Shown here piece by piece: positions 4,687 to 28,044 of a stretch of DNA of 39,859 nt (position 1 is its first letter; each line of letters starts with the position of its first letter). The stretch comes from Syntrophales bacterium (GTDB taxonomy: Bacteria; Desulfobacterota; Syntrophia; Syntrophales; UBA8958). The DNA lies in the NCBI GenBank assembly GCA_041664405.1, contig JBAYKV010000002.1, forward strand, positions 1-39,859, in the 5' to 3' direction. Below the pieces are notes generated by a model that was given only the letters and a program-made list of their open reading frames with translations, was not told where the DNA came from and searched no databases. A program made the position numbers and the translations under genes.

Positions 4687-4696
4687 GATATGATCG

Positions 4697-5920: not shown

Positions 5921-5960
5921 GGATTTGCTTTCATAGTGACTCTGTCCTCAGAGCCTTATT

Positions 5961-6536: not shown

Positions 6537-6622
6537 GTCATGCTTCTCCCAGAAACAGGCTAATCACCCGTCCACAAAAGATTGAATGCGCCACTCAGGG
6601 GTTGTCGCTGCCTGAATCGGCA

Positions 6623-8736: not shown

Positions 8737-8747
8737 TATTCCTTTTT

Positions 8748-9599: not shown

Positions 9600-9728
9600 T
9601 TATCCAATGATGTCTTACATTTTCTCCTTTTAACAAAATTTAGATACTGCTCCGCCCCCTCAGTTACCAAGGTGCAACCGGCTGATGTGGAATATTTGTA
9701 TATGCGTGAGAGTGAATACATTAAAATC

Positions 9729-9743
9729 GCAATATTTATGCCA
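9729..9743 (-). promoter_or_regulatory. Sigma54 (-24/-12) promoter candidate upstream of wzm
   Basis: The minus strand reads TGGCATAAATATTGC. This fits TGGCAC-N5-TTGC with exact GG-to-GC spacing. It lies about 130 nt upstream of the wzm ATG (9599) in a 225-bp AT-rich gap. Confidence 0.35.
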
Positions 9744-9824
9744 CATACAATTAAGAGATGCAATAAAATATAGTAAAAATCCAGCTCATATTTCAGATAT
9801 TAGTTAGCGGAAGTTTCGATAAGA

Positions 9825-11249
9825 TCATCTATTGCGAAGTAAGGGATGGGGCATTAAAGGTTTTACGTTTTCAACAGGTAATGATTCGATAGTAGCCGAC
9901 TTTTTTTCGATAACGGGAATCATGATAATCATGGCGGTGAGAAACCAGAAGGGTTCCATAATGCGGACGATAATGAAAGTATTGGACCCGATGCCGTGGG
10001 TCAACATGGCAAAAAATCCCGCTAAAAATCCAAGGGAGACTCCGCGATAGAAATCATTTCTTGTCTGCATATACGTAAGATATGCATTTCTATAAATAGT
10101 GTAAAGAAGGAGAAAAAAGAATAATAGTCCGATCAGCCCTGTTTCTGCCAAGACCCGGGGATATTGGGCATCCACAAATGTGTAGCCTGTTACACCATAA
10201 CCTAGGAGGGGTTGGGCGATGAAATCTTTGGTCAGGATGACCTTCCAGGACATCAGCCGGGCTGAGGTGGATGTGTCGATACGGGTCTTGCCGATCTGTA
10301 CCTGGCCCGCTTCCTTAGCCTGAGAAACGGTATAAAGGGCACGATCACGGACGTTTTGGGGCATTACCATAGGTCCGGCGATTAGAATGAAGAGAATCAC
10401 CCCCAGGATGATCTTCTTTTTTTCACTGAAATAAAGGAGGGCTATCGCCATAGGGATGAGGGATAGCCAGGAACTTCGGGAGAAGGTTGCAGCCAGGGCC
10501 ACGGCGATGAAAAAAACCAGGCAGGTAAGATAGATTTTGGGTTTTGTTTCTTTAAGAGTCAAAAGAAGACCAAAAACAAGAGACAGCATGAGCACGAGAT
10601 AACCGCCCAAGGTATTAGGTTCTCCTTCGACCCCTTCAAAAGGGGCGGAAACCCGATGACCGTAAGGGATCTGGACAAAAGCGTAGAGACAAACCAGAAA
10701 ACAGACGATCAGCATGAAATACGTAAATCGCCGAATTTGTTTTTCCTCTTTCAGATGATTGACGGCCATGAAATAGATTACGTAGTACTCAAAGTATTTT
10801 ATTACAAAAAAAATACCCGACGCGCCTTGGACACGACCCATCATGTATCCGAACAAGGTAGCGAAAACACAGGCCAGGAAATAATAAGCAATAGGTTTGT
10901 TCAGGGGTGTTTTTAAAAAAAGGCCGAGCTCTTTGTTTACTGCGGTTTTCAAAAACCAGCTTATGCCTATAACGACAAGAAGAAAGTCATCTGCTCGCAG
11001 TGTCATGGCGCGTCCGCGTCCTCGTATGGCTTCCCCCTCCATGCCGAACTGGGGTCCCAGGAGCATGGCGGCGATAAGCACATAGAGGGCAAATTCCGTA
11101 TTCAGAAAGGTCAGGGCGCCGATGATCAGGGTGATGATGATCATCACCCCCATCATTGTCGAGGCACTGGTCATGATCAGAGCTGCGATGAGCGTCAGGG
11201 ACCCTATCCAGAGCAACAAAACTATGTTTTTATTTTGAAAAGAGGACAT
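9825..11249 (-). CDS. O-antigen ligase / Wzy-like polytopic membrane protein
   Basis: 474 aa with more than 10 predicted TM helices and a central loop (FSRSSWLSLIPMAIALL) resembling the Wzy_C/O-antigen-ligase family. Polysaccharide-locus context. Confidence 0.65.
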   Translation of the reverse strand: MSSFQNKNIVLLLWIGSLTLIAALIMTSASTMMGVMIIITLIIGALTFLNTEFALYVLIAAMLLGPQFGMEGEAIRGRGRAMTLRADDFLLVVIGISWFLKTAVNKELGLFLKTPLNKPIAYYFLACVFATLFGYMMGRVQGASGIFFVIKYFEYYVIYFMAVNHLKEEKQIRRFTYFMLIVCFLVCLYAFVQIPYGHRVSAPFEGVEGEPNTLGGYLVLMLSLVFGLLLTLKETKPKIYLTCLVFFIAVALAATFSRSSWLSLIPMAIALLYFSEKKKIILGVILFILIAGPMVMPQNVRDRALYTVSQAKEAGQVQIGKTRIDTSTSARLMSWKVILTKDFIAQPLLGYGVTGYTFVDAQYPRVLAETGLIGLLFFFLLLYTIYRNAYLTYMQTRNDFYRGVSLGFLAGFFAMLTHGIGSNTFIIVRIMEPFWFLTAMIIMIPVIEKKSATIESLPVENVKPLMPHPLLRNR

Positions 11250-11288
11250 TTAGTTCCGCAGAATCGTTGGCTCCGGTTTGCCGGACTA

Positions 11289-11549
11289 CTATTTTTTGAT
11301 ATCTTGTAATTTTTTTTTGATATCCTGCATTTCCATGTAATGCCGGTCAAGATCCCGGGGAAGGTATTCATCGACAATGGTGAATTTCTGGATGATTATG
11401 GGTGAAAAATGAACAACCGCCATGACGAGGATACAAAAGAACGTTATGATCAGCATCCAGATGATCGTCAAGCGGCGACGTACCTGGCGTTGGGCGCTCC
11501 GGCGCTTGTGTTCTGCCTCTCTGCTTTTCTCGCGACCATTTCTCTTCAT
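11289..11549 (-). CDS. Small single-pass membrane protein, unknown function
   Basis: 86 aa. Very basic N-terminus (KRNGREKSREAEHKRRSAQRQVRRR), one TM helix and a charged C-terminal tail. Starts 8 nt after the wzc-like stop. No family recognised. Confidence 0.4.
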   Translation of the reverse strand: MKRNGREKSREAEHKRRSAQRQVRRRLTIIWMLIITFFCILVMAVVHFSPIIIQKFTIVDEYLPRDLDRHYMEMQDIKKKLQDIKK

Positions 11550-11556
11550 ATTTAAA

Positions 11557-14133: not shown

Positions 14134-14152
14134 GCACGGGCTTCTCCAGATT

Positions 14153-15373
14153 TTACCATTTCAAGTTGTTCTGATCCCTGGTATAGGTGGTGCGATAGGT
14201 TCCGGGGATAAGGAGATAGTTAAGCAGCGGCGTCGTATTGGCGATGAATTCGTTGATATCTCCGATCAGCATGCGGGGGACGTAAACGACGTCGCCACTC
14301 TGGAGCTTGATGTTCTGGGAGAGATCGCCCCGCTTGAGCATATCGTTGTAGTTGGCGGAGAGGATGAGGGGTTTGCCTCCCCGTTCCCGGAATTCACGAA
14401 TCACCTTGATGTCCGATTTTACCGCCAAAGGGGTAATACTGCCGGCCAGGGCCAGGGCGGCCAAAAGATCCGGGGCGTCCTGGAGGCGATAGATGCCGAT
14501 GGTGGTGACCTGCCCCATTACGTAGACACGGTCGGCGAAGTAGGGCAGGGCCGGGACGGTGATGATGTCACTGTTATCGATGACGGGATTCTGGGACTCG
14601 TCACCATAGAACATAGCTTTATATACATTGATTGTATATTTTTTCCCCTTCCGGATAAGCTCCACGTTTTTCAGATCGGCGTTGGCGACGTTCTGCTGGC
14701 CAGCGGCTACGCTCCCGGAGAGGGAGGAATAATCGCCCCGGCCGGTAATGGCGCCGCCGGCCTTGGAGATGAGATCGAGCATGGTCATCTTGCCGGTGAG
14801 GGCATATCGTCCCGGACCGGAAGTCCCGGTCGGGAGGACGTTGATCTGCCCGAAAAGGGTGGCGCTCTTGCTTTTGTATTCCTTGACAAGGACTTCGAGG
14901 CGGGGATTGCGGAAATAGTTTTTCAAATCTTTCCTGAGGATTTCCTGGACTTCATACACCGTCTTGCCGCTGACCGGAATATCATCCCCGTACATATAAG
15001 AGATCTTGCCGTCGGGACGGACTTCGACATTGTAGGTGATCTGTCTGAATCCTTCAAAGGTCTGGGAGCCGGCGACGGCAATCGTCCAGAAGTTGATGGT
15101 CAGGACGTCTCCGGGGCCGACGATATAATCCGAGACCCCCTTTTCATCCTTGAAAACGCTATTGCCACTGGATGTAGCCAGCTTCGCAACGGCCACGTCC
15201 ATTTCCTGCTGTTCTTTTTGAATGCGGGCATGTTCCTGTTTCATATCCTTTGACGCTTCGTATTCCTTAATCGGAATGCCCTTGTCTTCCATAAAAGGAA
15301 AGCAGGCCGTCATGGAACATGTCATCAGGACGACGAAAACACATTCCAGAATACGCTTCATCTTACCCGTCAT
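14153..15373 (-). CDS. Polysaccharide export outer-membrane lipoprotein (Wza-like; Poly_export + SLBB)
   Basis: 406 aa. Lipobox-like signal peptide (VVLMTCSMTAC), PGDVLTINFW Poly_export motif and SLBB-like repeats (LDLISKAGG, LLAALALAGS). Alternative ATG at 15361. Confidence 0.8.
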   Translation of the reverse strand: MTGKMKRILECVFVVLMTCSMTACFPFMEDKGIPIKEYEASKDMKQEHARIQKEQQEMDVAVAKLATSSGNSVFKDEKGVSDYIVGPGDVLTINFWTIAVAGSQTFEGFRQITYNVEVRPDGKISYMYGDDIPVSGKTVYEVQEILRKDLKNYFRNPRLEVLVKEYKSKSATLFGQINVLPTGTSGPGRYALTGKMTMLDLISKAGGAITGRGDYSSLSGSVAAGQQNVANADLKNVELIRKGKKYTINVYKAMFYGDESQNPVIDNSDIITVPALPYFADRVYVMGQVTTIGIYRLQDAPDLLAALALAGSITPLAVKSDIKVIREFRERGGKPLILSANYNDMLKRGDLSQNIKLQSGDVVYVPRMLIGDINEFIANTTPLLNYLLIPGTYRTTYTRDQNNLKW

Positions 15374-15563: not shown

Positions 15564-16538
15564 CTATAAATCCGGTTCTATTCTCATGCCAATACGCATT
15601 AATAAATTGACTGCCATGATGGTAGCAGCTTTAGCCAATCCAGCGCCACGATAACGGATTCGCTCATGTAAACAATCAATATGCCAGCCTTTTCCCCGGG
15701 GGCAACCGTCTGGGCTGAGAATCAGAGTGACCCATGCCGCAGGGATGTTAGTCCCGTCAAGATAGACTGTCAACATCCACTCAATTATCGGTTTCCCCTG
15801 TTGAAAGGATTTGCTTAACTCGAACCGGTCAAGAGGGATGGCTCGATAAAGATCATGAGACTGCCCTGGCTTAAGCGGTAAATGAATCTCATAGCGGAGT
15901 TGATCGTATATGGTTTTCAGGAAGAGGGAGGCAATTATTTGATATATTTGCAGACGTTGAATCCGTTCTATCCCCTTGATCAATTGCCGTCGGGCATCCC
16001 AGTTCCAGCATTCCCAAAGCGATAGCCGGACTTTTGCGAGACTATTGAGTGGTTTTGGTGTGATTGGAAATTCCTTGCCTTTACGTTCAATCTTTTTGAC
16101 AACTCCGAGGACATCTTCTTCATGAATTGGATCATCGGCGCCCTGACTGCTCTGATCCGGTCGGGTGACTATATAGTGTCCATCCTTATCCATCCCTTTG
16201 GCAATTGTCCTATGTCCAAAGAGAAAGCCGTTAAGGCGGACTACAGCAATATCGCCGATTTTGATCTCTTCTATGGGACGCGATTCGATATGCAGTGTAT
16301 CGCCTGGCTGAATGCAAGGATACATGCATGACCCGCGGGCATGAAATATCGCCCCGCCATGGTCCACTAGGGCGCGACAGAATTCCAGGGGCATTGTTAT
16401 GAGGCTGTTGGCATGTCGTCTACCACTGTGCCGCATCCGGAAAGGGCAGGAGGAAACAGTGCATTCCATCAGGCTGTTATTTCTTTCCGTGTGACATGAA
16501 GATTCCGGCGTGCCGACAGTGTTATAGACAATGGACAT
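15564..16538 (-). CDS. Fusion protein: cytoplasmic S26/S24 signal-peptidase-like domain (Cys/His at catalytic positions) + C-terminal GNAT-like domain
   Basis: 324 aa, no TM helix. GSCMYPCIQPGD...GDIAVV...GHRTIA aligns by eye with the signal peptidase boxes G-D-S-M-Y-P-T-L...GD and (K/H)R-V/I. The C-terminus has a GNAT-like acetyl-CoA motif RYRGAGLAKAATIMAV. Confidence 0.55.
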   Translation of the reverse strand: MSIVYNTVGTPESSCHTERNNSLMECTVSSCPFRMRHSGRRHANSLITMPLEFCRALVDHGGAIFHARGSCMYPCIQPGDTLHIESRPIEEIKIGDIAVVRLNGFLFGHRTIAKGMDKDGHYIVTRPDQSSQGADDPIHEEDVLGVVKKIERKGKEFPITPKPLNSLAKVRLSLWECWNWDARRQLIKGIERIQRLQIYQIIASLFLKTIYDQLRYEIHLPLKPGQSHDLYRAIPLDRFELSKSFQQGKPIIEWMLTVYLDGTNIPAAWVTLILSPDGCPRGKGWHIDCLHERIRYRGAGLAKAATIMAVNLLMRIGMRIEPDL

Positions 16539-16753: not shown

Positions 16754-18001
16754 ATGGTACGTGCTTCCGATCTTGTAAAGGGCAAAACGATGAGTTTGCA
16801 CGATCATGACACAAAGGATTCATCGCCAAAAGCTATGGCGCCGAAAGATGCGTTGCTGGAAGAGGCGCGCATATCTTTCCGGCTAAGTGAAATTGATGTT
16901 CTTAAGCTAAAAAAGGGAAATCAGCAGGAAATTAACATACCCACCAAAATTGGGGAAACGATTGTTGACGAAATCAGGCTGACACCGGAGCCGGAAGAGG
17001 AACAAATAGCCCCTCCTTCATCGCCTCCGGCGATGGCGATAAATATACGTTCAGTTCGGCAGGATGAAATACAGGTTGCGGAAACTTCGGAAGGACTCAG
17101 TGAAGAAGCTGGACTCAGAAGGGTTTATGTTGCGACGAAACAGTATATGGCCCATATCCGGGAGCAGGTGAAGAATGGGGACTCCATCCAGCTTGAACCG
17201 GCGCTGATCTATATTAATAATATCCTCAATTCCTCTGAAGATATGGTTTCGCAAATTTACCAGTTAACAGTGGATTACGAGCAGGAAGACGACTATTATC
17301 TTTCTTCTCCGATCAATACCATGGTTTGTGGAGTGAAGATTGCACAGCGGATGGGATACGAAAAATCGAAACTCATCGAATTCGGTCTGGCGGCATTACT
17401 TCATGATATCGGGATGTTCATTATCCCGGAGCAGATCTTGAACAAGCAAGGAAGACTGTCAGATGACGAGATGGATCTTATCAAGAAACATCCCGATTTA
17501 GCGGTTGAGATATTGGCGCCTTTTACGGCGACATATCCGAAGATGATCAAGGCAATATACGAACACCAGGAGCGGGCAAATGGACAGGGCTACCCCCGGG
17601 GGCTCAAAGGTGACGAAATATGCGACTATGCCCAGATTATCGGTATTTGTGATTCTTATGAAGCCATGACCCATCACCGCCCCCATAAGAAGATACTGTT
17701 GCAGTCCGACTCGATCAAGGAATTGATTGGTTCAAAGACAAAGCTATTTGAACCCAGGATTATCAAGATGTTTTTAGATGAGATCTCCATTTATCCCATC
17801 GGCAGTTATATCCGGCTTAATAACCGCAATATTGGCAGGGTAGTCGCAACAAGCAAGGGTAACCCGATGAAACCGGTGGTCAATCTGATCTTCGACGAAA
17901 AGGGGAAAAAAATAGAACCGCCCCGGATTATGGATCTGAAGAATTACCCGGTTTTAAACATTGAGGCGAGCATCTCTGCCGATGATTTGCCGGGAAACTG
18001 A
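16754..18001 (+). CDS. HD-GYP domain protein (probable c-di-GMP phosphodiesterase) with uncharacterised ~190-aa N-terminal region
   Basis: 415 aa. ALLHDIGM (HD) and HQERANGQGYPRGL (GYP) motifs. GGAGAA sits about 10 nt upstream of ATG 16754. The only plus-strand gene in this part of the window. Confidence 0.85.
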   Translation: MVRASDLVKGKTMSLHDHDTKDSSPKAMAPKDALLEEARISFRLSEIDVLKLKKGNQQEINIPTKIGETIVDEIRLTPEPEEEQIAPPSSPPAMAINIRSVRQDEIQVAETSEGLSEEAGLRRVYVATKQYMAHIREQVKNGDSIQLEPALIYINNILNSSEDMVSQIYQLTVDYEQEDDYYLSSPINTMVCGVKIAQRMGYEKSKLIEFGLAALLHDIGMFIIPEQILNKQGRLSDDEMDLIKKHPDLAVEILAPFTATYPKMIKAIYEHQERANGQGYPRGLKGDEICDYAQIIGICDSYEAMTHHRPHKKILLQSDSIKELIGSKTKLFEPRIIKMFLDEISIYPIGSYIRLNNRNIGRVVATSKGNPMKPVVNLIFDEKGKKIEPPRIMDLKNYPVLNIEASISADDLPGN

Positions 18002-18018
18002 AATTCTGAACACCGAAA

Positions 18019-19206
18019 TTAGTAGCGCCGTCTGATTCCTTGGGTGACAGTGTAGATTAGCTGGCGGAAAATCTCCCCGAATCTTGAATAATGAACGGGA
18101 AAGGATGTATCTGATATTCTTGCCCGTTTTCGCTGTCCCTGAATGGCCGCCGGTGGGAATAAAGTGCGGTACATGAAATGCCCCTTTCCTTTCACGCCGG
18201 TATTCATGGCCAGGTAGAGTAGATAACTGCTCCCGCGGATTCGGAAACCATGGGACTGAAGATACTGAAAGAAACGCTGTTCCCAGGTTAGTCGATCGGG
18301 ACGGAGGCGGTCCATAATCCGGCTGGGAACCGATCCCGGGCTTAAGTGTTCCATTGCCGCCAATCCAAAATAAACAAGATCCGTAAGATGAAAGTCCTCG
18401 CTTTCCTGAACGACAAATTCCCAATCCAGTTGATCCTTGCAGGTGGTCAGGACCTGTTGGAGATCATAGACTAAAATCAGGCGGTTAAAGGAGTGATTTA
18501 TCCTCAGGGCGTGCTCACAAAGGCAGATGAGCAAATGTTCCGGCGCCAGTATCCTGCTCTCCACATTATCCAGTTGAACCATCCGGGCGAACTGCCATAA
18601 ACGGTCCACATTCATGAATTTTGAAAAAACAAATGCCGGTACGGAGGTATTTACCGGGTGCCAGTGGATATGGAGGATCGGAGAGCCGACATTGGGCTGC
18701 CGGTATTCCAGGCTTGATAGGTAACCCTCGGGAGTTATGAGGTCTGGATGGCTATCAACATCGACAGCCCCATACCCGAAACCTCTGAGACATGAGTCGA
18801 TTATGGTGAGATCCGACTTCCGGATCAGGAGATCGACGTCCGACATGCCGCGCATGGCAATACTGGGATAGATATATTCGGCGAGGGCAAAACCTTTCAG
18901 GAGCAAGTGGGGGGCGCCGCACTCGTTTAACATGGCCAAAACTAATTTTAGATGCCCGCGGAGGGACAAATTTGATATGAGATTTTGATGGAATCTTCGC
19001 GCCAGCGCCTGACTATAGACCAGAGGGACGCGACCAGTCAGCACCCTTTTCTTCAGAAGATAAAACAGAACCGCGGCCACATCTTCCTCATATCCGCAAT
19101 GGACAAACTTGTGCCAGTTGTAAGGAGAATCTGGAATGTAGTTCTGACCGGCAAAAAGGAGATTGCGGATAAGTTTGGTTTCCGGAGACGACGGTGTGTA
19201 TTTCAT
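18019..19206 (-). CDS. Uncharacterised nucleotidyltransferase family protein (PF14907/NTP_transf_5-like)
   Basis: 395 aa. AMRGMSDVDLLIRKSD fits the polymerase-beta-type G-S...D-x-D nucleotidyltransferase motif. ATGA overlap with the ABC exporter stop at 19203-19206. Confidence 0.65.
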   Translation of the reverse strand: MKYTPSSPETKLIRNLLFAGQNYIPDSPYNWHKFVHCGYEEDVAAVLFYLLKKRVLTGRVPLVYSQALARRFHQNLISNLSLRGHLKLVLAMLNECGAPHLLLKGFALAEYIYPSIAMRGMSDVDLLIRKSDLTIIDSCLRGFGYGAVDVDSHPDLITPEGYLSSLEYRQPNVGSPILHIHWHPVNTSVPAFVFSKFMNVDRLWQFARMVQLDNVESRILAPEHLLICLCEHALRINHSFNRLILVYDLQQVLTTCKDQLDWEFVVQESEDFHLTDLVYFGLAAMEHLSPGSVPSRIMDRLRPDRLTWEQRFFQYLQSHGFRIRGSSYLLYLAMNTGVKGKGHFMYRTLFPPAAIQGQRKRARISDTSFPVHYSRFGEIFRQLIYTVTQGIRRRY

Positions 19207-21011
19207 TTGTCGGCGCCAACGATCAGGGAAGCGTAATAAGGGTTCGCGGACATCAGCTCTTCATGAACACCGACTGCTGTCAGGCGGCTATCCTGAATGA
19301 GGAGGATGCGATCGGCATTCTTTAGAAATTCTGTCTGGTTGGAAACGATGATCACGGTTTTTCCCTTAATTGCCGGCCAAAGGGCAGAAAGGATTGACTT
19401 CCCGGTCCTCCCATCCAGAGCGGCGATCGGTTCATCGAGAAGCAGGATATCCGGATTCTTCAACAGTGCCCTGGCAATGGAGATTCGCTGCTTCTGACCT
19501 TCGGACAAAGTGACCCCTCTTTCTCCCGCGACGGTCAGATATCCCTGGGGAAGAGTTTCTATGAAATCGTGAATCCCGGCTATCCTTGCCGCGGCCGCAA
19601 TCTCACTCATAGCGGCGCCGGGGTGACCGTAAGTGATATTTTCCATGATCGTTCCGGAAAGAAACCAGTGCTGCTGGGGAACGTAACCCAAGGCTTCCCG
19701 TAGAGACTGGACGTCATATTCGGCGGCTGGCCGGGAGTCGAAATATATTTCTCCGGAAGTCGGTTTATAAAAAAGAAGCAGCAGGCTTACCAAGGTGGTT
19801 TTCCCCACCCCGCTGGGGCCGGCGATGGCAATCCGCTCTCCGGCCTTGATCGAAAAGTTGATATCTTCAAGGACCGGCTTACGTTCATCGTAGGCAAAAC
19901 ATACTCCCCGAAATTCGACGTCCCCATGCAGATTTTTTACGGAATTTCCATGGCCGTAATTTTCTTCCAGGACAAGATCAAAGAGGTGGGAGACCCTATT
20001 GGCGGAGGCAAGCGCGCTTTGCATCTGCAGATTGGCGGTTGCCAGAAATTGCGCCGGACCGAAGACATAACCAAGATAGGCCTGATACGCGAAAAGCGAA
20101 CCGAGGCTCCAGTGACCGGTAATTACCCAGTAGGCGCCGATGAAAAGTACCAGCGCCCGGGCAATGCCGGGCAGGGAATTGATGGCAGCGTTAGCCAGGG
20201 CATTTACCGTTCCCTGCTCGATAGAGATATTTACACCCTTTTTCAGGGCCGTCACGAGCTGATCCATGGTTTTCACTTCTTTAGCAAAGGCCTTGATCAA
20301 GGGGAGGGAAATAAGGGATTCCTGGAACTGACCGGAAATCATCGCCTGTGTTTCCATATTTTCATTACTGAGGATCAGGAGCCGGTCTGAAAAATATCGG
20401 GCCACAAAGATCAGCGCTGGTAAGACGGCGATCATGACCATGGTCAATCGCCAGTCAAGGTAGAGGAGAAAGCAGAAACCGCCGACGAAGCGAACAGTAT
20501 TTTCCATTATCCCGACCATGGTACTAGAAAAGAACCAGCCCATCCCCTGCACATCCGATTCCAGACGGTTCATAAGATAGCCGGTCTGAATTCTGTCAAA
20601 GAACTTTTTGGGATAATGAAATACCCGCTCCAGGAGTGAGGATTGAATATCGAGGATGACCTCCTGGTCGAAACGATCAAAATAGTGCTGCTGATAAAGG
20701 CTTAACAGCCTGTCAGCAGCGGTGATGGCGATTATGATCAGGATCGTTGGCGCCAGCAAGCACAGTTGCCGGTTCATAATGACGTCATCGATGAGATAGC
20801 GGGTAATCATAGGTAGTGGGAAGCTAAGCCCTGCCGTAAGAAAGACCAGCCCGATGCCAACGATAAATCGGGTTTTGTGTTTTCCTGCATAGGTGGAGAA
20901 TTGTCGATAGAGTTCACTGAGTGCCCGGTCGGAAGACGGAGTAGAATGAATACGGTCCGGAGTACGTTTGCGGGAGAGCCCGGCTTTTAGATATTGGCGC
21001 CAGCTTTTCAT
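19203..21011 (-). CDS. ABC exporter, fused permease/ATPase (type I, MsbA-like); no N-terminal C39 peptidase domain
   Basis: 602 aa. Six-helix TMD, then Walker A GPSGVGKTT, signature LSEGQKQRISIA and Walker B ILLLDEP. Confidence 0.9.
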   Translation of the reverse strand: MKSWRQYLKAGLSRKRTPDRIHSTPSSDRALSELYRQFSTYAGKHKTRFIVGIGLVFLTAGLSFPLPMITRYLIDDVIMNRQLCLLAPTILIIIAITAADRLLSLYQQHYFDRFDQEVILDIQSSLLERVFHYPKKFFDRIQTGYLMNRLESDVQGMGWFFSSTMVGIMENTVRFVGGFCFLLYLDWRLTMVMIAVLPALIFVARYFSDRLLILSNENMETQAMISGQFQESLISLPLIKAFAKEVKTMDQLVTALKKGVNISIEQGTVNALANAAINSLPGIARALVLFIGAYWVITGHWSLGSLFAYQAYLGYVFGPAQFLATANLQMQSALASANRVSHLFDLVLEENYGHGNSVKNLHGDVEFRGVCFAYDERKPVLEDINFSIKAGERIAIAGPSGVGKTTLVSLLLLFYKPTSGEIYFDSRPAAEYDVQSLREALGYVPQQHWFLSGTIMENITYGHPGAAMSEIAAAARIAGIHDFIETLPQGYLTVAGERGVTLSEGQKQRISIARALLKNPDILLLDEPIAALDGRTGKSILSALWPAIKGKTVIIVSNQTEFLKNADRILLIQDSRLTAVGVHEELMSANPYYASLIVGADK

Positions 21012-21049
21012 ATATTTAAGGAGCCGGAAATGTCATATTATGGCAGAGT

Positions 21050-21919
21050 TTATAAAAGTTTTTTGTCGAGCAAAAGGCAGGCCTTTTCGAATTCCTCTTC
21101 AATATCGCCGGCCAAACTGACATGGAATCGGCAAGCGGGAATGGCAGCGGCTGCGTTGCAGACATTCTGAAAGACCCTCTCTTTCAAGGCAAGAGCAGCA
21201 TCGTTATTGGTGTCCAGAAATCCCCGTAGCGATTTACCAAAAGCGGCGCGGGTCATCAGGATGGACGTCTCACCCGGGCCGATGGGAGTTACCAGGTATT
21301 TGCGGTCCGGAAAAATAAAGAATATGTGGGAGATGGGGAGCGCTTGCTGAACAGGCCAGCTTTCCAGATCATCACATTTCAGTAAGTGGCTCCAGGTCGG
21401 AAAAGGGTGCCCCCGGTAACAGCCCTGCTGGTTGCGGACAATCAACGTTTCTTCATCGCAACGGATTTGATAGGCATTTGCCAGTCGTCGGCATAAAGTT
21501 GATTTGCCTGTTCCGGATGGTCCGGTAATTAAAATGCCTTGGCCGTTCCTTTCAATCAACCCGGCGTGAACGAGGAAACCCCACCGGCGGATGGCTTCCT
21601 GAAAAACCGGCGTCAGGGCGTGTTGAATATAGTAGATATCACGCCGTCTTCCCCGGCGTTGGTTGAATCGGCAGTGCCAATCATGAGAGCCGCTTTCCGC
21701 CCAGATGGTTACGAACCCTGAATCATGAACGATCCCGGGAGGATGCTCCGCTCCTCTGTTCACATGAAAGGTTAAACTGGCAGTAGGGTGGGGATGCTCG
21801 TGGCGCTTTAGCTTCAGGACAGCGGCGAATTTATCCAGCCAGGTCTGGAGGGGCATTCCGGCTGCAAAAGTCCAGCGCTGACCGTCGGCGAGTTCAAGAC
21901 GCCAAGGGCAGTTCACCAT
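21050..21919 (-). CDS. HPr kinase/phosphorylase C-terminal-domain-like P-loop protein (candidate peptide Ser kinase; ScmC-like)
   Basis: 289 aa. FLVHAGLIERNGQGILITGPSGTGKSTLCRRL...IRCDEETLI matches the HprK C-domain pattern (LHA..v...g.gvLi.G.SG.GKS....L......l..DD...i). Confidence 0.65.
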   Translation of the reverse strand: MVNCPWRLELADGQRWTFAAGMPLQTWLDKFAAVLKLKRHEHPHPTASLTFHVNRGAEHPPGIVHDSGFVTIWAESGSHDWHCRFNQRRGRRRDIYYIQHALTPVFQEAIRRWGFLVHAGLIERNGQGILITGPSGTGKSTLCRRLANAYQIRCDEETLIVRNQQGCYRGHPFPTWSHLLKCDDLESWPVQQALPISHIFFIFPDRKYLVTPIGPGETSILMTRAAFGKSLRGFLDTNNDAALALKERVFQNVCNAAAAIPACRFHVSLAGDIEEEFEKACLLLDKKLL

Positions 21920-21961
21920 GTAAAATCATTCAGGGCAAAACTAAAATCGCTCATGGCAACC

Positions 21962-22249
21962 TTAGCCGCCGCCACTGGGGTGTACACCTTGACCGGTATT
22001 GCACATATTTGTGGCACTCTGTCCTACCTGGCAAACTAAAGCTCCCGTAGCTCCCTTGCCCACGGAGCAATTATTTGAGGCTGAAGGACCGAGTATACAA
22101 GCTTGTAGAGCAGAATCACCCCTTCCGCACTGACTTGTGGCGCTATTACCGCGCCCGCAATTGACGCTTGCCCCTTGCACCTCCCAGACCTCCTTGCCCA
22201 TCAGATTAACAAGAACCGGTTTTTCGTAGATCAACTTTTTCTCTTTCAT
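21962..22249 (-). CDS. Candidate RiPP precursor peptide: ~30-aa leader + six-Cys decapeptide-repeat core
   Basis: 95 aa: MKEKKLIYEKPVLVNLMGKEVWEVQGASVN-CGRGNSATSQ-CGRGDSALQA-CILGPSASNN-CSVGKGATGALV-CQVGQSATNM-CNTGQGVHPSGGG. AAGGAGG lies 7 nt upstream of the ATG. ATGA overlap with the stop of the upstream rSAM gene at 22246-22249. Flanked by maturase-type genes. Confidence 0.6.
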   Translation of the reverse strand: MKEKKLIYEKPVLVNLMGKEVWEVQGASVNCGRGNSATSQCGRGDSALQACILGPSASNNCSVGKGATGALVCQVGQSATNMCNTGQGVHPSGGG

Positions 22250-23382
22250 ACAACGCCTCCTTTTGAAGGTAAGGAAAGGCCGCCGGGACGAAGGCGTGTT
22301 TCCGGAAACAACCCCTGCCGGCTAGCCTCTTCACAATACCAGAACGGCGCCCAGAGATCATGGGAGCTGTAATAATTCTGGGCAATACAACTGCCCAGGC
22401 ATACCTGCTGCATGACACAGATTGAGCAAGTCCCTTTGAGTTGCCGGGGCATCCCGGCGCGAAGCTCCTCAAGGACGGGGTTATGGAGCCAGACATCCGA
22501 CAGGGAATCCCGGGACGCATTTCCGAAAACGAGCTCCGGCACCGTGGCACCGATCCCGCACAGGGCATAGGCGCCGTCGGCAAGGACGCCAAGAATCCTC
22601 AAAATACCACAGCAGTAACATCCATCCCCATTGGTACCGAACATTTTTCCGAGCCCGCGAAAGGCCGCGGGGTGGTGAAAGCACAAGGGCAGGTCCGTGG
22701 ATGCCGAGAGTTCATTGTCCACGTACGTTCCGATCGCGATGAGTTCTTCAATGGTCAGGGTTTCCCCCCGAGCATGCATCTGAACTCCCCTTGCTGTAGG
22801 CTGAACAATATTGAATTTCACCGAACCGGCGCCAATGGTCTCTGCGAGTTTAATGACGGCAGGTATCTGATCCCTGTTACGGCGCATGACCGTCATGATG
22901 ACTTGGGGTCTTAGTCCCGCGTTTACCAGGTTTTCAATTCCGCGCAGAGTTTCATGAAAACATCCCTCTTTACCACGAATCCAGTCATGGGTCACCTCGT
23001 CCATGCCGTCCAGACTGACGGCCACGGAAACCTCTTTACAGGCGGCGATCATTCGTGACAGTTCTGGTGTGCATAATGTGGCATTTGTTTCCACGGAAAC
23101 GCCTATCTGCTTGTCCCGGGTAATTGTCAGCAATTCACCGATCCGGGGATGGAGAAGGGGTTCTCCTCCTGTCAGTTTGATGTGGTTAAGACCCATCGGC
23201 AGCGCCTGGTCGATGATCGTGGCAAACAGTTTCGGAGCAAGGGCGGTCAATGCCTTTTTGGCGGCAACATAAGCAGGTTCCATCCAGCAGTGGCGGCAAC
23301 GCAGATTGCAGCTGTCGGTAAGATAGAAGTAGAGCTGGCTCAAGGGATGAGAGCCCGATTTGTCTTCTAATTCACTATTCAT
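22246..23382 (-). CDS. Radical SAM/SPASM-domain peptide-modifying enzyme (second of two)
   Basis: 378 aa. CNLRCRHC (CxxxCxxC) near the N-terminus. C-terminal Cys-rich SPASM region (CYCCGILRILGVLADGAYALCG...CSICVMQQVCLGSC). 8-nt overlap with the upstream rSAM gene. Confidence 0.9.
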   Translation of the reverse strand: MNSELEDKSGSHPLSQLYFYLTDSCNLRCRHCWMEPAYVAAKKALTALAPKLFATIIDQALPMGLNHIKLTGGEPLLHPRIGELLTITRDKQIGVSVETNATLCTPELSRMIAACKEVSVAVSLDGMDEVTHDWIRGKEGCFHETLRGIENLVNAGLRPQVIMTVMRRNRDQIPAVIKLAETIGAGSVKFNIVQPTARGVQMHARGETLTIEELIAIGTYVDNELSASTDLPLCFHHPAAFRGLGKMFGTNGDGCYCCGILRILGVLADGAYALCGIGATVPELVFGNASRDSLSDVWLHNPVLEELRAGMPRQLKGTCSICVMQQVCLGSCIAQNYYSSHDLWAPFWYCEEASRQGLFPETRLRPGGLSLPSKGGVV

Positions 23383-24493
23383 GACTGGCAGTTACCTCCG
23401 GGAGGCGGCCTCCCTGGTTCAAGAATCGCCATAGACAGGAATCGGGGCTGGGATGATCAATTTCGCCGATGAGGGTATAGGCCGTTGCCGGACAGTTACC
23501 CGTGCAATAAGGGGTATAGGGGCAGTCCCGGCAAAAGGGGAAATGGTCAAGCGATATCCGGGAGCGTTGTCTTAGTCCCTGTAGTTTTGGATGGCGTTGC
23601 CAGACATCCCAAAGGTCATCACGGTTGATGTGGCCCAGGTTCACATGACCCAATTGCAGGCAGGGGACGATGACCCCGTCCGCGCGGACAGCCATGGTCT
23701 TCATGGCGCCATTGCACCCGGTGAGAAATCCCCGACCTTCCGGCCGTTCACGGCTTTCACGCCGGGCCCGTTCCATTTCCAGCCAGAACTGTGCATCCGC
23801 CAAGGGACCGGCAGTGGCATTGATCCGACCTTCATACTTGGCGGCAAGTGTGAGTAGGGTTTCCATGGCTAGTGTTTGCTCTTCTGTCGTAAGTTGGGTC
23901 TGGGCGGCGTTTCTCCGGCACAACCCCATGTGGGAGGCAGAATTGGTGGAAAAAGAAGGAATTTCGAGTTCCTCAAGCAGAAATCGGGTAATATCCTCGA
24001 GTTCATGGACATTTTTCCGGTGAATGGTTACGCGGACAGTTACGGGCAAATTATTTGCCTGTAAGGCACGTATGCCACGAACAGCCTTCAAAAAGTTGCC
24101 TTCTCCCCGGAAGGCGTCATGGGTGGTATCGATTGCCCCGTCGATAGAGATCTGAATGAGATCGCAGCGGCCGGTCGAGGCCAGGAATGCAGCCGTGTCA
24201 TTATCAATGAGGGTACCGTTGCTGAGAATGGAAAAACGCATCCGATTGGCCACAATGGATTGGATGATGTCCCGAAGGTCTTTGCGGTAAAAAGGTTCAC
24301 CACCTGAAAGAGTGACGGTCATAATCCCGCCACTGCCCAATTCGGCAAAAAACTGGCACCATGATTCAAGAGGGAGGTCTTCTTTAACATCTCCAGGAGC
24401 TGAAAAATGACTGCAATATGCACAGCGGAGATTACAGAAACTCGTGATCTCAATATCGACATTGCGGGGGGTCTTCATCACCTGCGCAGCCAT
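23375..24493 (-). CDS. Radical SAM/SPASM-domain peptide-modifying enzyme (first of two)
   Basis: CNLRCAYC motif and a SPASM region (CNGAMKTMAVRADGVIVPC...CRDCPYTPYCTGNC). I chose ATG 24493 because GAGGA lies 4 nt upstream and it sits 8 nt after the PqqD-like stop. The track ORF extends to 24550, and another ATG lies at 24514. Confidence 0.88.
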   Translation of the reverse strand: MAAQVMKTPRNVDIEITSFCNLRCAYCSHFSAPGDVKEDLPLESWCQFFAELGSGGIMTVTLSGGEPFYRKDLRDIIQSIVANRMRFSILSNGTLIDNDTAAFLASTGRCDLIQISIDGAIDTTHDAFRGEGNFLKAVRGIRALQANNLPVTVRVTIHRKNVHELEDITRFLLEELEIPSFSTNSASHMGLCRRNAAQTQLTTEEQTLAMETLLTLAAKYEGRINATAGPLADAQFWLEMERARRESRERPEGRGFLTGCNGAMKTMAVRADGVIVPCLQLGHVNLGHINRDDLWDVWQRHPKLQGLRQRSRISLDHFPFCRDCPYTPYCTGNCPATAYTLIGEIDHPSPDSCLWRFLNQGGRLPEVTASHE

Positions 24494-24500
24494 ATGATCC

Positions 24501-24788
24501 TCATTCAGCTTCATAAACAGCCAGACCGATATCGATCGTGGCCTGAACAAAATCTTCGAGCTGGGCTTTCATGTCGCTGGGAATCGCTTCTGCCCGTTTG
24601 TGGACAATATCTGCAATATCATCAATGCTATGCCGACCGTCGAGGTGTTTCCAGATGAGGACGCCAATTGGGTTGAGGCCGAAGGCATTACCCGTTTCCG
24701 GATCGAACAGGATGGCCCAGTCGTCGAACTCCTCCCGGAGTATTACCAGAGGATTAGCAATAACATTTTTTATATCATGCTCATTCAT
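24501..24788 (-). CDS. PqqD-family protein (RiPP recognition element / peptide chaperone)
   Basis: NPLVILREEFDDWAILFDPETGNAFGLNPIGVLIWKHLDGRHSIDDIADIV is a typical PqqD pattern. The start is uncertain: ATG 24788 (95 aa) or 24854 (117 aa, overlapping the upstream ATPase gene by 20 nt). Confidence 0.7.
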   Translation of the reverse strand: MNEHDIKNVIANPLVILREEFDDWAILFDPETGNAFGLNPIGVLIWKHLDGRHSIDDIADIVHKRAEAIPSDMKAQLEDFVQATIDIGLAVYEAE

Positions 24789-24834
24789 ACGGTGGATTAT
24801 AGCCCGTGGATGTGAAAGTGTCAATCTGAAAAGA

Positions 24835-25629
24835 CTAAAGGGAATCTCTGACAACCTTTAAAATCAGCGGTTCGTCAATTTCCTGGACTTTCAGGCTGAA
24901 GCCGATCAGCAGCGCCAAGTCACAAACATTGTTGATCTTCCGTGGAATGCCCCCGGAGTATTGATAAATGGCATCATACGCCTTTTCCGTGAATAGCTCA
25001 CGATCACAACCTGCCTTGCTGAGGCGGAAACGGATGTAACTGGACGTTTCTGACCGCGGCAGAGGATTGAGGTGATACCTTATGGCGATGCGTTGATCAA
25101 GCTGTTTATATTCACGGATCATATCTCGCAGTTCCGGCTGGCCAATGAGGAGGAAAGTCATCAGAAAACGATCGTTCATCTGGAAGTTTAACAAGAGACG
25201 GATCTCTTCGAACGTCTCACCGAAAATGAGCTGGGCTTCGTCAATAATCAACAAGGTGCTCTTTCCCTTGTTCAGGTTGTCCAGCAGGTGGTTATTGAGG
25301 ATAACAAGCAGATCGGTTTTGGAATTGGAATTGGAATCCAGTCCCAATTGGTAATGAACCTCTTTTATGAAATCCAGGGCGTTCAAGGAGGGATTAGTGA
25401 TGAGACCGATGTCAAATTCCTTTTCAGGTAGTTGTTGTATAAAGACCCTGCTCAAGGTCGTTTTCCCACTGCCGATATCACCAGTGAGGAGTGCGGCGCC
25501 CTTCATCCTTTTAACGGCATACAGTAGGCGGACGAGGGCTTCTTCGTGTTCCGGAGAATAGTACATGAAGTCCGGATCGGGGACGTTCTCAAAGGGATAC
25601 TTATTGATTTTCCAGTAATCTAAATACAT
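24835..25629 (-). CDS. ExeA/GspA-like AAA ATPase (type found in PEP-CTERM/EPS loci)
   Basis: 264 aa. YLDYWKINKYPFENVPDPDFMYYSPEHEEAL...LTGDIGSGKTTL...LLIIDEAQ is the characteristic ExeA-family N-terminus with Walker A and B. Confidence 0.8.
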   Translation of the reverse strand: MYLDYWKINKYPFENVPDPDFMYYSPEHEEALVRLLYAVKRMKGAALLTGDIGSGKTTLSRVFIQQLPEKEFDIGLITNPSLNALDFIKEVHYQLGLDSNSNSKTDLLVILNNHLLDNLNKGKSTLLIIDEAQLIFGETFEEIRLLLNFQMNDRFLMTFLLIGQPELRDMIREYKQLDQRIAIRYHLNPLPRSETSSYIRFRLSKAGCDRELFTEKAYDAIYQYSGGIPRKINNVCDLALLIGFSLKVQEIDEPLILKVVRDSL

Positions 25630-26072
25630 TTTATCATTCCATCAATGGCCATATAAATTTCTGAAAAACAGAGGCGATAATTATAAACCGACTGTCTGTA
25701 CGGGTCACGTATATCCTGGTTGACGCCATCGTAATCTCTGGCAAATGTTTTCAGGAGTCGAATCTTTTCCTCATATTGTGGATAGTCGCCGATAAGCTGC
25801 TGCCGATGAGCGTTTTCCATCACTACAATCCAGTCTGCTTCCCCTATCATAACATCTGAAATCGGCCTGGAAAAATGGAGATAACCGTCATAGCCATGCT
25901 CTTCCAGCATTTTTATCGCTGCGGGATCGCCGGCAGCGCCATGCATGTCGATCATTCCGGCGGAACAAGCGATGATGTCATTTCTCTTGAGCTTAGCCAA
26001 TCTTCCCTTCAATATCCTCTCTGCCATGAAGCTCCTGACGATATTGGCGGTGCAGATAAATAAGATAGTCAT
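25620..26072 (-). CDS. Low-molecular-weight protein-tyrosine phosphatase (Wzb-like)
   Basis: 150 aa. N-terminal P-loop ILFICTANIVRS (CX5R-S) and a C-terminal DP loop (DIRDPY). 10-nt overlap with the downstream ATPase gene. Confidence 0.8.
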   Translation of the reverse strand: MTILFICTANIVRSFMAERILKGRLAKLKRNDIIACSAGMIDMHGAAGDPAAIKMLEEHGYDGYLHFSRPISDVMIGEADWIVVMENAHRQQLIGDYPQYEEKIRLLKTFARDYDGVNQDIRDPYRQSVYNYRLCFSEIYMAIDGMIKCI

Positions 26073-26190: not shown

Positions 26191-28044
26191 TTATCTGAGG
26201 GTAACCAGAAGCATCCGTTTTCCTTCCAGAGTCAGCCTGGCCAGTTTCATCTCGAAGAATTGTGACTCCGATTTTTCTTGTGGCCGCAGGAGCTGAACAT
26301 AGGATTGCTTGGTAATGCCAATCCATGCCTCGTGAAGCTCCCCGATGAATGTCTCCCGTTCCTTGTCCGGCAGATAATCGCTCATGTTGGCGCCAATAAT
26401 CTCGATGCGGGAGAGTTTCATATATTCAAGAACCCGCTCGGTGATACCGCAAATCTGTCCTTTCCGGTCCACGAGAAAAGCAAATTCTTCCTTGAAAAGA
26501 TGTTTTCTCAACTTATCAAGGTTGTTTTTCATGTTCGTATAGGCAGCGCCTAATTGAATATTTGCCTCTTCGAGCTTGCTGTTGAGGTTCAGAAGGTTGT
26601 TTTCCGCTTGTTTGCGATCAGAAATATCCCGGCCGACAGCCTGATATTCCATGAATTCACCCTGCTCATCATAGATCGCCCGGCAGGTCCAATGCTGCCA
26701 TAATTCCTCGCCTTCGGGCAATATCACGCGGTTTTCATAAGATACCACGGGGCTGTCCGGCTTTATGCCACTGAGAAGTTCTTCGATATGGCCGCGTTCA
26801 TTGTCAGGGACGAAAGAAAGAAAATGTCTGCCAATCAACTCCCTGCGTTTATAACGGAAAAAACGATAATAAGAATCGTTGATAAATGTCAGAGTGCCGT
26901 CCTGGTCAAAGCGACAGATGAACTCCGTTTGATCTTCAATGACAGCTCGATATTTTTCCGCTTCATCGCGAATTTTCATTTCCGACTGCTCTAGTTTTTC
27001 AAGCATCTTATTGATGTCATGGGTAAGGTTTGCCAGCTCGTCTCGACCATCCACTTGAATCCTTTTTTTTGTATTTCCGTCGGATTCAATGGATCTGACG
27101 TCATGGCTGATCTTCAAAAGCCTCCGGAGAACCAACTTTTCCAGTAGCACGACCGAGACCGCCATGAAGACAAGGGCCACAAATAAGACAAAGATAAACC
27201 CATAGACGGCGATGATCTTGCCATGCTTAAAAATGGATCTATCGTCCATCGTCCGGAGCACTAGGGAGGGTTTTCCAAGGGGATCTTTCACCAAGGAATA
27301 TCCGGCAATTATATTGTCCTTTAGAGTTTTAATGAGAATGGGTTCATCGGGAGACAGAGCGGTCCAAGCGGCGCTGATATCCGGGGGGAGATTTTTTTCG
27401 TCTTTGTGGAAAATTGACAATTTAAGCTTCAACATCTCGCCAAGATGATCAATTGTCCCTGTGTTAAGAAAGCATCCGACAATAAAAAACCCGCGTGGCT
27501 CTCCCTTGCCATTACTGGCTATGATGGGCCGCATAGCAAGCATGGTCAGACCTTCCGGAAATAGTTCAATGCCTGATGATAATCTGGACGTTGGCGAGGA
27601 AAAGATGTAGTCATGAATGATTTTTTGACGTTCGTTGATACCTTTGAATATCGGAACTTTCTTTTGTTTTTCTAGATCAAAACCTGACGCATGGACAATA
27701 TGACCGGAGCGATCGGTAATAATGATAAAATTGATCTTCAGGTTGATAAAGGTTGAATCGGTAAAATTGGAGTTAATGAAATCCGGTTTTCGGGACGACA
27801 TGAATTTGCTCATCTCGTCCCATGTCCCGTACTCACTGGCTATAATGCCAAGAGATTTGATTTCATTATTAAGCATGTTGACGGCGCGATCCAGGTCCTG
27901 TCGGCTTTCTCGTATTTCGATTTCCTGGATTCCCCCCAGGAATATATGGTAAGAGATAATGAGCATAACAGTCGTTAAACCTAAGAAAGTCAAGGCTACG
28001 ATGAGAAGCATCTTTTTCCGCAGGGTCATATTTTCTAAACTCAT
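26191..28044 (-). CDS. Membrane sensor: CHASE4-like periplasmic domain - HAMP - PAS - PAS-like; no recognisable output domain
   Basis: 617 aa. TM1 plus LGGIQEIEIRESRQDLDRAVNMLNNEI...YGTWDEMSKFM (CHASE4-type start) and TM2 near residue 290. HAMP-like linker, then PAS (YRAVIEDQTEFICRFDQDGTLTFIND...GRDISDRKQAE). Ends after a second PAS-like segment. Confidence 0.7.
   Translation of the reverse strand: MSLENMTLRKKMLLIVALTFLGLTTVMLIISYHIFLGGIQEIEIRESRQDLDRAVNMLNNEIKSLGIIASEYGTWDEMSKFMSSRKPDFINSNFTDSTFINLKINFIIITDRSGHIVHASGFDLEKQKKVPIFKGINERQKIIHDYIFSSPTSRLSSGIELFPEGLTMLAMRPIIASNGKGEPRGFFIVGCFLNTGTIDHLGEMLKLKLSIFHKDEKNLPPDISAAWTALSPDEPILIKTLKDNIIAGYSLVKDPLGKPSLVLRTMDDRSIFKHGKIIAVYGFIFVLFVALVFMAVSVVLLEKLVLRRLLKISHDVRSIESDGNTKKRIQVDGRDELANLTHDINKMLEKLEQSEMKIRDEAEKYRAVIEDQTEFICRFDQDGTLTFINDSYYRFFRYKRRELIGRHFLSFVPDNERGHIEELLSGIKPDSPVVSYENRVILPEGEELWQHWTCRAIYDEQGEFMEYQAVGRDISDRKQAENNLLNLNSKLEEANIQLGAAYTNMKNNLDKLRKHLFKEEFAFLVDRKGQICGITERVLEYMKLSRIEIIGANMSDYLPDKERETFIGELHEAWIGITKQSYVQLLRPQEKSESQFFEMKLARLTLEGKRMLLVTLR

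Follow-up and report, generated by a model that had tools for sequence, protein, structure and literature searches.

The window analyzed here is the whole of a 39,859-nt stretch of DNA from a Syntrophales bacterium (positions 1 to 39,859 of contig JBAYKV010000002.1, assembly GCA_041664405.1), and on its minus strand lies a compact cassette of seven genes that belongs by sequence to the SynChlorMet (SCM) family and very probably directs the maturation of a RiPP, a peptide made by the ribosome and modified after its translation. An open reading frame (ORF) scan recovers all seven as co-directional minus-strand ORFs at 18019-24854, just as they had been listed in an earlier note on this DNA, made from the letters alone. 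In order of transcription these are scmD (24501..24788), for a PqqD-family peptide chaperone, or RiPP recognition element (RRE), of 95 amino acids; scmE (23375..24493) and scmF (22246..23382), for two radical S-adenosylmethionine (SAM)/SPASM enzymes; an scmA-like gene (21962..22249) for a precursor peptide, also of 95 amino acids, recognized with a leave-one-out profile; scmC (21050..21919), for a P-loop kinase-like protein of the phosphoenolpyruvate carboxykinase (PEPCK)/HprK fold class; a gene for an ABC exporter with fused transmembrane and nucleotide-binding domains (19203..21011; PF00664, PF00005); and a gene for a nucleotidyltransferase-fold protein of family PF14907 (NTP_transf_5; 18019..19206). 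The genes are tightly packed, and the three overlaps that had been described can each be read directly in the sequence: 8 nt, ATGAATAG, between scmE and scmF, and ATGA both between scmF and the peptide gene and between the ABC and PF14907 genes. The remaining intergenic gaps in the cassette measure 38-42 nt.

Family membership was judged against the curated equivalog thresholds of NCBIfam/TIGRFAMs, with Pfam and PDB sequence searches alongside. ScmD matches TIGR04248 with 116.2 bits (cut-off 100; match 1-82 of 84), ScmE matches TIGR04250 with 573.6 bits (cut-off 400; 1-358 of 358), ScmF matches TIGR04251 with 552.6 bits (cut-off 400; 1-353 of 353) and ScmC matches TIGR04249 with 184.5 bits (cut-off 125). 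The earlier note had tentatively identified this foursome as the SynChlorMet cassette and had proposed a hidden Markov model (HMM) search with these models and PF14907; all four Scm models are above their curated cut-offs and PF14907 reaches 123.3 bits, so that the identification proves accurate, and on these scores the window cassette is a member of the SCM family, on which literature searches found no publication. Pfam confirms PqqD, Radical_SAM with SPASM (twice), ABC_membrane with ABC_tran, and NTP_transf_5. The CxxxCxxC motif and C-terminal SPASM region that had been seen in both radical SAM proteins are borne out by CNLRCxxC and by matches to PF04055 and PF13186 in ScmE and ScmF alike, and the PqqD-like recognition protein said to precede them is recognized by PF05402 (48 bits) as well as by TIGR04248. 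Ten Cys residues, those of CX3CX2C plus seven in the SPASM domain, are 100% kept in 22 ScmE and 26 ScmF homologues, and ScmE and ScmF should therefore each carry two auxiliary clusters. For both enzymes the Scm equivalogs outscore all other models by more than 400 bits: the non-Scm radical SAM models compared, which include NirJ, AhbD, PqqE, MftC, PapB, SkfB, AlbA and WgkB, reach at most 137 bits, far under their own cut-offs. Anaerobic sulfatase maturases, a non-peptide family to which these proteins might alternatively have belonged, are absent from the best 25 NCBIfam matches of either. The exclusion of two other pathways also holds. Against pyrroloquinoline quinone (PQQ) biosynthesis, the PqqE model gives 105 and 72 bits (cut-off 381) and the PqqD model 19.5 bits (cut-off 46), and the annotated genes of the window include neither PqqB nor PqqC; against lasso peptides, no Asn-synthetase-like cyclase and no transglutaminase-like B2 protease is encoded by the seven genes or by those around them.

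The small gene between scmF and scmC is central to the interpretation. Its product has a leader, KLIYEKPVLVNL, followed by a core of six C-x-x-G-x-x-A/V units (CGRGNSA, CGRGDSA, CILGPSA, CSVGKGA, CQVGQSA, CNTGQGV) and a PSGGG tail. A Shine-Dalgarno sequence, AAAGGAGG, stands 7 nt upstream of its start and, given the ATGA overlap, the gene is predicted to be translationally coupled to scmF. A profile made from 32 peptides found elsewhere, without the window peptide itself, gives it 53.4 bits (E = 1.4e-15); among the 1151 reading frames in the window, the runner-up reaches 5.6 bits. Because of this match and the Shine-Dalgarno sequence, the peptide, as judged from sequence, is not a chance ORF. 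The earlier note had held that no substrate peptide or product was ever assigned to the SCM cassette. The first part does not stand, since a curated model for the precursor exists (TIGR04252, ‘SCM_precur_ScmA’; 49 positions, cut-off 35 bits); the second does, in that no paper on a product was found. The window peptide matches TIGR04252 with 14.1 bits (E = 0.04) over the repeat region only, and by these comparisons it is a divergent ScmA, not the first substrate candidate. The 95-aa gene is called, with no family attached, in public metagenome assemblies containing the window contig, and a word-indexed protein search with the peptide alone returned nothing, the index being ill-suited to short low-complexity peptides.

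To place this peptide among its relatives, 31 loci were retrieved with ScmF, one genome per species, and scanned in all six frames; they come from deltaproteobacterial/Syntrophales metagenome-assembled genomes, Chlorobium, Nitrospirae, Methanocella and others. In 22 of these loci a motif scan, extended with an HMM search, detected 35 short ScmA-like ORFs of shared design; at least 15 loci have the peptide gene immediately behind scmF. No ScmA-like match occurred away from the cassettes either in the 31 loci or in the window. Nine loci yielded no precursor, five of which are truncated contigs or fragments and four of which have full flanks; a relaxed leader motif sought in L007, L010, L021, L022, L024 and L027 likewise gave no precursor. 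When 1.84 billion representative proteins were searched exhaustively with HMMER, at least 264 matched at E <= 1e-3, and among the best 150 of these 264, 141 are no longer than 170 aa, all 141 with two or more CxxG and 133 with the leader motif; a 26-peptide profile run against the word-indexed database gave 3 proteins only. The reverse route, from peptide to neighbourhood, again arrives at Scm genes: P0034, a close relative of the window peptide with the same PSGGG end, sits at the same position in the full cassette of L032, P0008 lies in an L041 cassette ordered D-E-F-A-A-C-peptidase-PF14907, P0046 of L043 follows two radical SAM/SPASM genes, and P0025 lies beside a PF14907 gene and an ScmE fragment. 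The synteny expected of a genuine substrate gene is thus observed in both directions. None of 26 syntenic peptides passes TIGR04252, the best being that of Methanocella (32.1 bits over the full model), and such genes therefore go unnamed or uncalled.

These data bear on the reading in which the small ORF is not the substrate at all, and the radical SAM enzymes act on a non-peptide (tetrapyrrole-like) molecule or on a protein encoded elsewhere. The best non-Scm matches of ScmE and ScmF include NirJ, NirJ2 and AhbD, and four full-flank loci have no detectable ScmA, both of which speak for that reading. The NirJ/AhbD scores, however, are 115-132 bits against cut-offs of 500-515, the cassettes always include a peptide chaperone of the PqqD type, and the peptide genes keep tightly to their place beside the Scm genes, are coupled in translation to scmF and are in some cases even joined to ScmD in one protein (below); of all the alternatives considered here we find this one the hardest to credit.

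Leader and repeat statistics were drawn from 172 non-redundant peptides containing 959 C-x-x-G units. The leader reads K-[LIM]-x-Y(92%)-E(74%)-x-P(100%)-x-L/I-x-D-L, and its Y-x-x-P-x-L portion resembles the lasso leader motif bound by PqqD-type RREs, and one ScmA-like peptide weakly matches the model for paeninodin-family precursors. About 10-13 residues after the leader Pro, at positions P+10 and P+12/13, comes a small-x-small site (AYA, AHA, AEG, SFG and similar), with the first Cys standing 14-20 residues beyond the same Pro. In the core, 92% of Cys fall in CxxG units, position +6 of the unit is Ala in 59%, Pro in 15% and Val in 7%, and Ser or Thr stands at +4 or +5 in 68% of the 959 units. 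Peptides contain 2-12 CxxG units and up to 16 Cys, with a Cys-to-Cys spacing of 10-11 residues in 644 of 787 cases and a tail of 6-9 residues past the last Cys in 143 of the 172 peptides. Since repeat number varies and the last unit is always complete, each C-x-x-G-x-x-A heptad appears to be an autonomous modification unit whose partner residue lies downstream of the Cys. The peptides of L008 and L009 are unusually Cys-rich, with 14-16 Cys including CC pairs. In L008 there is also a 76-aa ORF just after scmE (4121-4351, plus strand; E = 0.0012-0.0018) with the leader WKYENPRLIDL and no CxxG repeats, which may be a decayed precursor or a different type of substrate.

A peptide of this kind would, in the scheme that we favor, be rewritten repeat by repeat by ScmE and ScmF, through the chemistry of 5'-deoxyadenosyl radicals. 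The product that we would most expect is one small ring per unit, linking the Cys sulfur to a carbon of a residue 4-6 positions downstream in a sactionine or ranthionine thioether, by analogy with the CX3D rings of PapB and with SkfB. PapB makes six CX3D thioether rings (freyrasin), and SkfB is a thioether-forming sactisynthase. The closest solved relative of both window enzymes is SkfB (ScmE 87 bits, ScmF 62 bits), followed by PqqE and SuiB. The thioether-synthase models themselves are not satisfied by ScmE or ScmF, with 82 and 78 bits for PapB (cut-off 340), 88 and 67 for SkfB (300), 79 for AlbA (850) and 96 and 92 for StsB (625). That the rings are thioethers specifically, an assignment made by analogy, is graded well below the rest of the scheme, at close to an even chance with the balance tipping slightly the other way.

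The presence of PqqD- and PqqE-like proteins, with MftC among the better ScmF matches (126 bits), raises the question of whether the peptide might instead be a sacrificial scaffold for an intracellular redox-active small molecule, in the manner of PQQ or mycofactocin; the hosts, moreover, are anaerobes (syntrophs, Chlorobium, Methanocella). Known precursors of that type have one invariant core, whereas ScmA has 2-16 variable repeats and up to four paralogues per locus. The dedicated ABC exporter and the signal-peptidase-like gene of the family point instead to a secreted peptide, and partners of the PqqB/C or MftD/E type are missing, which together make a cofactor pathway very unlikely.

When the loci are clustered all against all, the genes fall into the consensus order ScmD-ScmE-ScmF-ScmA(1-4 copies)-ScmC-peptidase-ABC-PF14907. 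The ScmF-ScmA-ScmC block is tandemly duplicated in L008 (6086-10358) and L017 (6318-10597), and in L017 it is split from ScmD-ScmE by an oppositely oriented ABC gene; because the block duplicates as a whole and is separable from ScmD-ScmE, gene order suggests two functional sub-modules in the cassette. Two independent natural fusions of ScmD to ScmA occur, P0020 (L035-L037) and P0075 (L038, L039), each on several contigs, and the window ScmD is 49% identical to the N-terminal domain of P0020. On the available contigs neither fusion gene has a radical SAM gene nearby. One of them adjoins an exosortase/Rce1-like gene, and PilZ, EAL, GGDEF, HDOD and PAS-kinase genes surround the other. The existence of natural fusions supports a direct interaction of ScmD with the leader. 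In the proposed scheme ScmD, as a PqqD-type RRE, would bind the Y-x-x-P-x-L leader, for which the candidate segment in the window peptide is KKLIYEKPVLVNLMG, and would present the core to ScmE and ScmF.

ScmC has the P-loop GPSGTGKST, and its homologues, which carry PF27840, are named ScmC by JGI and NCBI. The earlier note had called this an HprK-like protein, and this description is upheld at one level and fails at another. The PEPCK fold class also contains the HprK catalytic domain. An AlphaFold2 model of ScmC (30 homologues) has a predicted local distance difference test score (pLDDT) of 90.3 and a predicted template-modelling score (pTM) of 0.90, and its best PDB matches by Foldseek are PEP carboxykinases (E ~1e-7, TMq 0.45-0.55), which agrees with the description at the level of the superfamily. 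At the level of the family it fails: the HprK models are matched in the P-loop region only and below cut-off, with 30.3 bits for HprK_rel_A (TIGR04352; cut-off 200) and 19.9 bits for PF07475 (cut-off 33.3). A very divergent ScmC-like P-loop protein replaces canonical ScmC in six loci, including the nearest relatives L001, L002, L003 and L030; scmC is called as a 101-aa fragment in L032 and L033 and as 304 aa in L034. The PF14907 protein, whose gene is present in 18 homologous loci, has no NCBIfam or PDB sequence match. The ABC exporter is MsbA-, TAP- and bacteriocin-exporter-like, always below equivalog cut-offs, and has no N-terminal C39 peptidase domain; homologues with 48-62% identity occupy the same position in L008, L009, L015 and L032.

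A precedent for how ScmC and the PF14907 protein could work together comes from lasso peptides. In the paeninodin pathway an HPr-kinase homologue phosphorylates the C-terminal Ser of the precursor, and in the pseudomycoidin pathway a nucleotidyltransferase attaches one or two hexoses to the Ser phosphate (PMC8498205); many lasso clusters contain HPr kinase and PqqD together with an ‘uncharacterized nucleotidyltransferase’ (PMC7533575). On the pattern of paeninodin and pseudomycoidin, ScmC and the PF14907 protein may tailor Ser or Thr residues, adding first a phosphate and then, on that phosphate, a sugar or nucleotide-derived group.

A kinase-fold protein and Ser/Thr residues near most of the Cys would also be the ingredients of a lanthionine-like route, in which ScmC would phosphorylate Ser/Thr at +4/+5, elimination and Cys addition would follow, and the radical SAM enzymes would epimerise, form C-C links or methylate. 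Phosphorylation followed by elimination is the route typical of class III/IV lanthipeptide kinases. The placement of Ser/Thr 4-5 residues past Cys in 68% of the 959 units and the tight linkage of ScmC to ScmF and ScmA in the duplicated F-A-C modules are compatible with it. Yet the cassette has no lyase or cyclase domain, 32% of units have no Ser/Thr at these positions whereas Gly at +3 and Ala at +6 are better conserved, and six loci have only the very divergent ScmC-like protein, so that we regard this route as improbable.

Leader removal can be proposed in some detail for the family. A signal-peptidase-like gene of the S26 type, for a protein of about 216 aa, follows scmC in 15 loci, and its product matches TIGR02228 (archaeal-type signal peptidase I) with 56-63 bits (cut-off 51.85) and keeps the GxSMxPT, HR and GD motifs together with a conserved C-terminal domain. 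Because the gene is conserved and the leader has a small-x-small site, the S26-like protein is likely the leader peptidase. In the scheme this AxA or AxG site, immediately ahead of the first Cys, is where the leader would be cut, by the cassette S26-like enzyme in most relatives and by another peptidase in the window. A weak candidate in the window is a 324-aa S24/S26 signal-peptidase-like protein (15564..16538, minus strand) encoded 1.5 kb downstream of the cassette, past a convergent HD-GYP gene. It matches TIGR02228 with 29.8 bits (cut-off 51.85), and Cys replaces the nucleophile Ser (GSCMYPC vs GxSMNP), with the His and Asp positions kept. We rejected it as an orthologue of the cassette peptidase on the grounds of 25-31% identity over the catalytic part of about 100 aa, an unrelated C-terminal half and the Cys nucleophile. 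L032-L034, the closest relatives of the window peptide subfamily, have a SAM-dependent methyltransferase gene between scmC and the S26-like peptidase gene (L032 10186-11067, L033 2087-2968, L034 2138-2974); both the methyltransferase and the peptidase are absent from the window cassette.

With export of the product by the ABC transporter as its last step, the scheme as a whole would have the SCM operon turn ribosomal ScmA into a heavily modified, exported peptide, and as a whole we consider it likely. Its most secure part, that this is a RiPP operon acting on the window ScmA-like peptide, is held with high confidence. That the product represents a structurally new RiPP class, in which each of the 2-16 repeat units is cyclised or rewritten in some other way by the two radical SAM/SPASM enzymes through an uncatalogued linkage, the peptide is then phosphorylated and phospho-glycosylated or nucleotidylated by a kinase/PF14907 pair known elsewhere from lasso peptides only, and the product in the lineage of the window might serve the exopolysaccharide/PEP-CTERM matrix instead of being an antibiotic, is a rather unlikely extension of the same scheme.

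Several observations weigh against the scheme. No SCM cassette product has been observed, and all of the chemistry is inferred. The window peptide stays below the curated ScmA cut-off (14.1 vs 35 bits), and the full-flank loci L007, L022, L024 and L027 have no ScmA within 8 kb. The models for NirJ/AhbD (heme-d1/heme-b), MftC, PqqE and the thioether synthases are about equidistant from ScmE and ScmF, and because these distances are nearly equal homology does not point to thioether formation in particular; nor does the scheme explain what the second radical SAM enzyme does. The AlphaFold2 model of the ScmD-ScmA fusion P0020 has a mean pLDDT of 52, too poor for leader docking, and only the leader segment (residues 141-160) reached pLDDT ~80-86. 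ScmA C-termini are not a conserved Ser, unlike those of the lasso kinase substrates, so that phosphorylation sites may lie inside the repeats, where Ser/Thr occupies +4 or +5 in only 68% of units. Finally, the window cassette does not have the S26-like peptidase of the family, and another peptidase must therefore act there.

The mechanical ORF of scmD extends to a TTG at 24854, and inside this extension lies a putative sigma-70-type promoter (24796..24824, minus strand), a perfect TTGACA-17-TATAAT that matches the consensus at 12/12 positions and is the sole 12/12 site in the 11 kb scanned. Because the promoter falls within the TTG-extended ORF, the start of scmD is most likely the ATG at 24788, which gives 95 aa; the ScmD family HMM match begins 9 residues after this ATG. 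The -10 box ends 7 nt before it, which, if the promoter is genuine, implies that the 5' untranslated region is very short or absent and that the operon opens with a gene, scmD, that is leaderless or nearly so. For scmE the mechanical ORF extends to a TTG at 24550, and the start is most likely the ATG at 24493, which GAGGA precedes. The cassette probably has a promoter of its own, separate from the upstream ATPase gene. A sequence scan showed no convincing terminator after the operon, and Rfam and tRNA scans of the window returned nothing. A candidate attenuator hairpin between scmA and scmC was rejected, its predicted fold (-25.2 kcal/mol, z-score -1.85) not being significant.

The cassette is nested in an exopolysaccharide-type locus. 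The region 856-15373 holds four glycosyltransferases, a DegT aminotransferase, a hexapeptide acetyltransferase, a methyltransferase, an ABC-2 transporter, Wzy, Wzc and Wza, and on the other side lie, at 24835-26072, a gene resembling that of the XrtA/PEP-CTERM-associated ATPase (249 bits against a cut-off of 324.5) and a low-molecular-weight (LMW) phosphotyrosine phosphatase gene. Between the polysaccharide genes and the cassette, an HD-GYP-type (HD_5) protein without a receiver domain is encoded on the plus strand (16754-18001) and converges on the cassette end, stopping 18 nt short of it; the cassettes of L001, L002, L030 and L032 are likewise flanked by an HD_5 gene. Neighbours of the ATPase, Wzc, Wza and HD-GYP types recur in L001, L002, L003, L030 and L032, despite ScmF being only 59-64% identical and the cassette being inverted in L032. 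A 410-aa ORF on the plus strand (14021-15253), antisense to the Wza-like gene (14153-15373, minus strand), is probably spurious. Farther out, a 617-aa CHASE4-HAMP-PAS sensor (26191-28044, minus strand) has no output domain (kinase, GGDEF or similar) among its Pfam matches.

This setting permits a functional proposal that is compatible with the mechanism favored above, namely that a phospho-glycosylated ScmA product is a component or regulator of an exopolysaccharide/PEP-CTERM matrix, as opposed to a secreted RiPP of the antibiotic kind. The window cassette lies within a polysaccharide locus with the PEP-CTERM-type ATPase and LMW phosphatase on its other side, five other loci (L001, L002, L003, L030 and L032) have like neighbours, and one ScmD-ScmA fusion is found beside an exosortase/Rce1-like gene. 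The linkage is nevertheless confined to one deltaproteobacterial/Syntrophales-like group and may therefore reflect few evolutionary events, most other loci are without such neighbours, and ScmA has no PEP-CTERM sorting signal. We accordingly think a matrix role unlikely, if somewhat less so than the lanthionine-like route.

The SCM cassette has been named in protein-family databases for more than a decade, still with no paper found, and the window offers a complete and compact example of it with a clear precursor and what is probably its own promoter. The curated ScmA model passes essentially no real precursors, and annotation consequently leaves them uncalled or unnamed. The precursor family is large, with at least 264 protein clusters, and its sharply defined leader and modular C-x-x-G-x-x-A core can guide the choice of what to express and which mass shifts to seek, and both a leader protease and an AxA/AxG cut site can now be proposed. 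The ScmC/PF14907 tailoring pair would connect SCM with the phosphoglycosylated lasso peptides. If the chemistry is new, the list of RiPP classes would gain one whose sources are strictly anaerobic syntrophs, green sulfur bacteria and methanogens, organisms with very few characterised natural products.

Compared with the SynChlorMet family as defined in the databases, the window shares ScmC/D/E/F in one operon and a leader-bearing Cys-repeat peptide between scmF and scmC, and it differs in its sub-cut-off ScmA, in having no S26-like peptidase and in its polysaccharide/PEP-CTERM-type setting. With PQQ and mycofactocin biosynthesis (PqqD/PqqE; MftB/MftC) it has in common a PqqD-family chaperone and a radical SAM/SPASM enzyme acting on a ribosomal peptide; SCM differs in having no PqqA/B/C or MftA/D/E, in a core that is repeated and variable, in the presence of an exporter, and in PqqE and MftC scores below cut-off. 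Ranthipeptide and sactipeptide systems (PapB/freyrasin, SkfB, AlbA, CteB) resemble it in their radical SAM/SPASM enzymes with a 7-Cys SPASM domain and in having one Cys per short tandem motif, whereas the SCM maturases are always paired, its RRE is discrete, and its CxxGxxA unit has no conserved Asp/Glu acceptor. The phosphoglycosylated lasso clusters of Firmicutes (paeninodin, pseudomycoidin) share with SCM a PqqD-type RRE, a Y-x-x-P-x-L leader, the kinase superfamily, a nucleotidyltransferase and an ABC exporter. There SCM has two radical SAM/SPASM enzymes in place of the cyclase and B2 protease, ScmA is without the conserved C-terminal Ser, and ScmC reaches only 30.3 bits against HprK_rel_A. 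By analogy, the lasso logic of a phosphate followed by a group added to it provides the best available model for how ScmC and the PF14907 protein may act.

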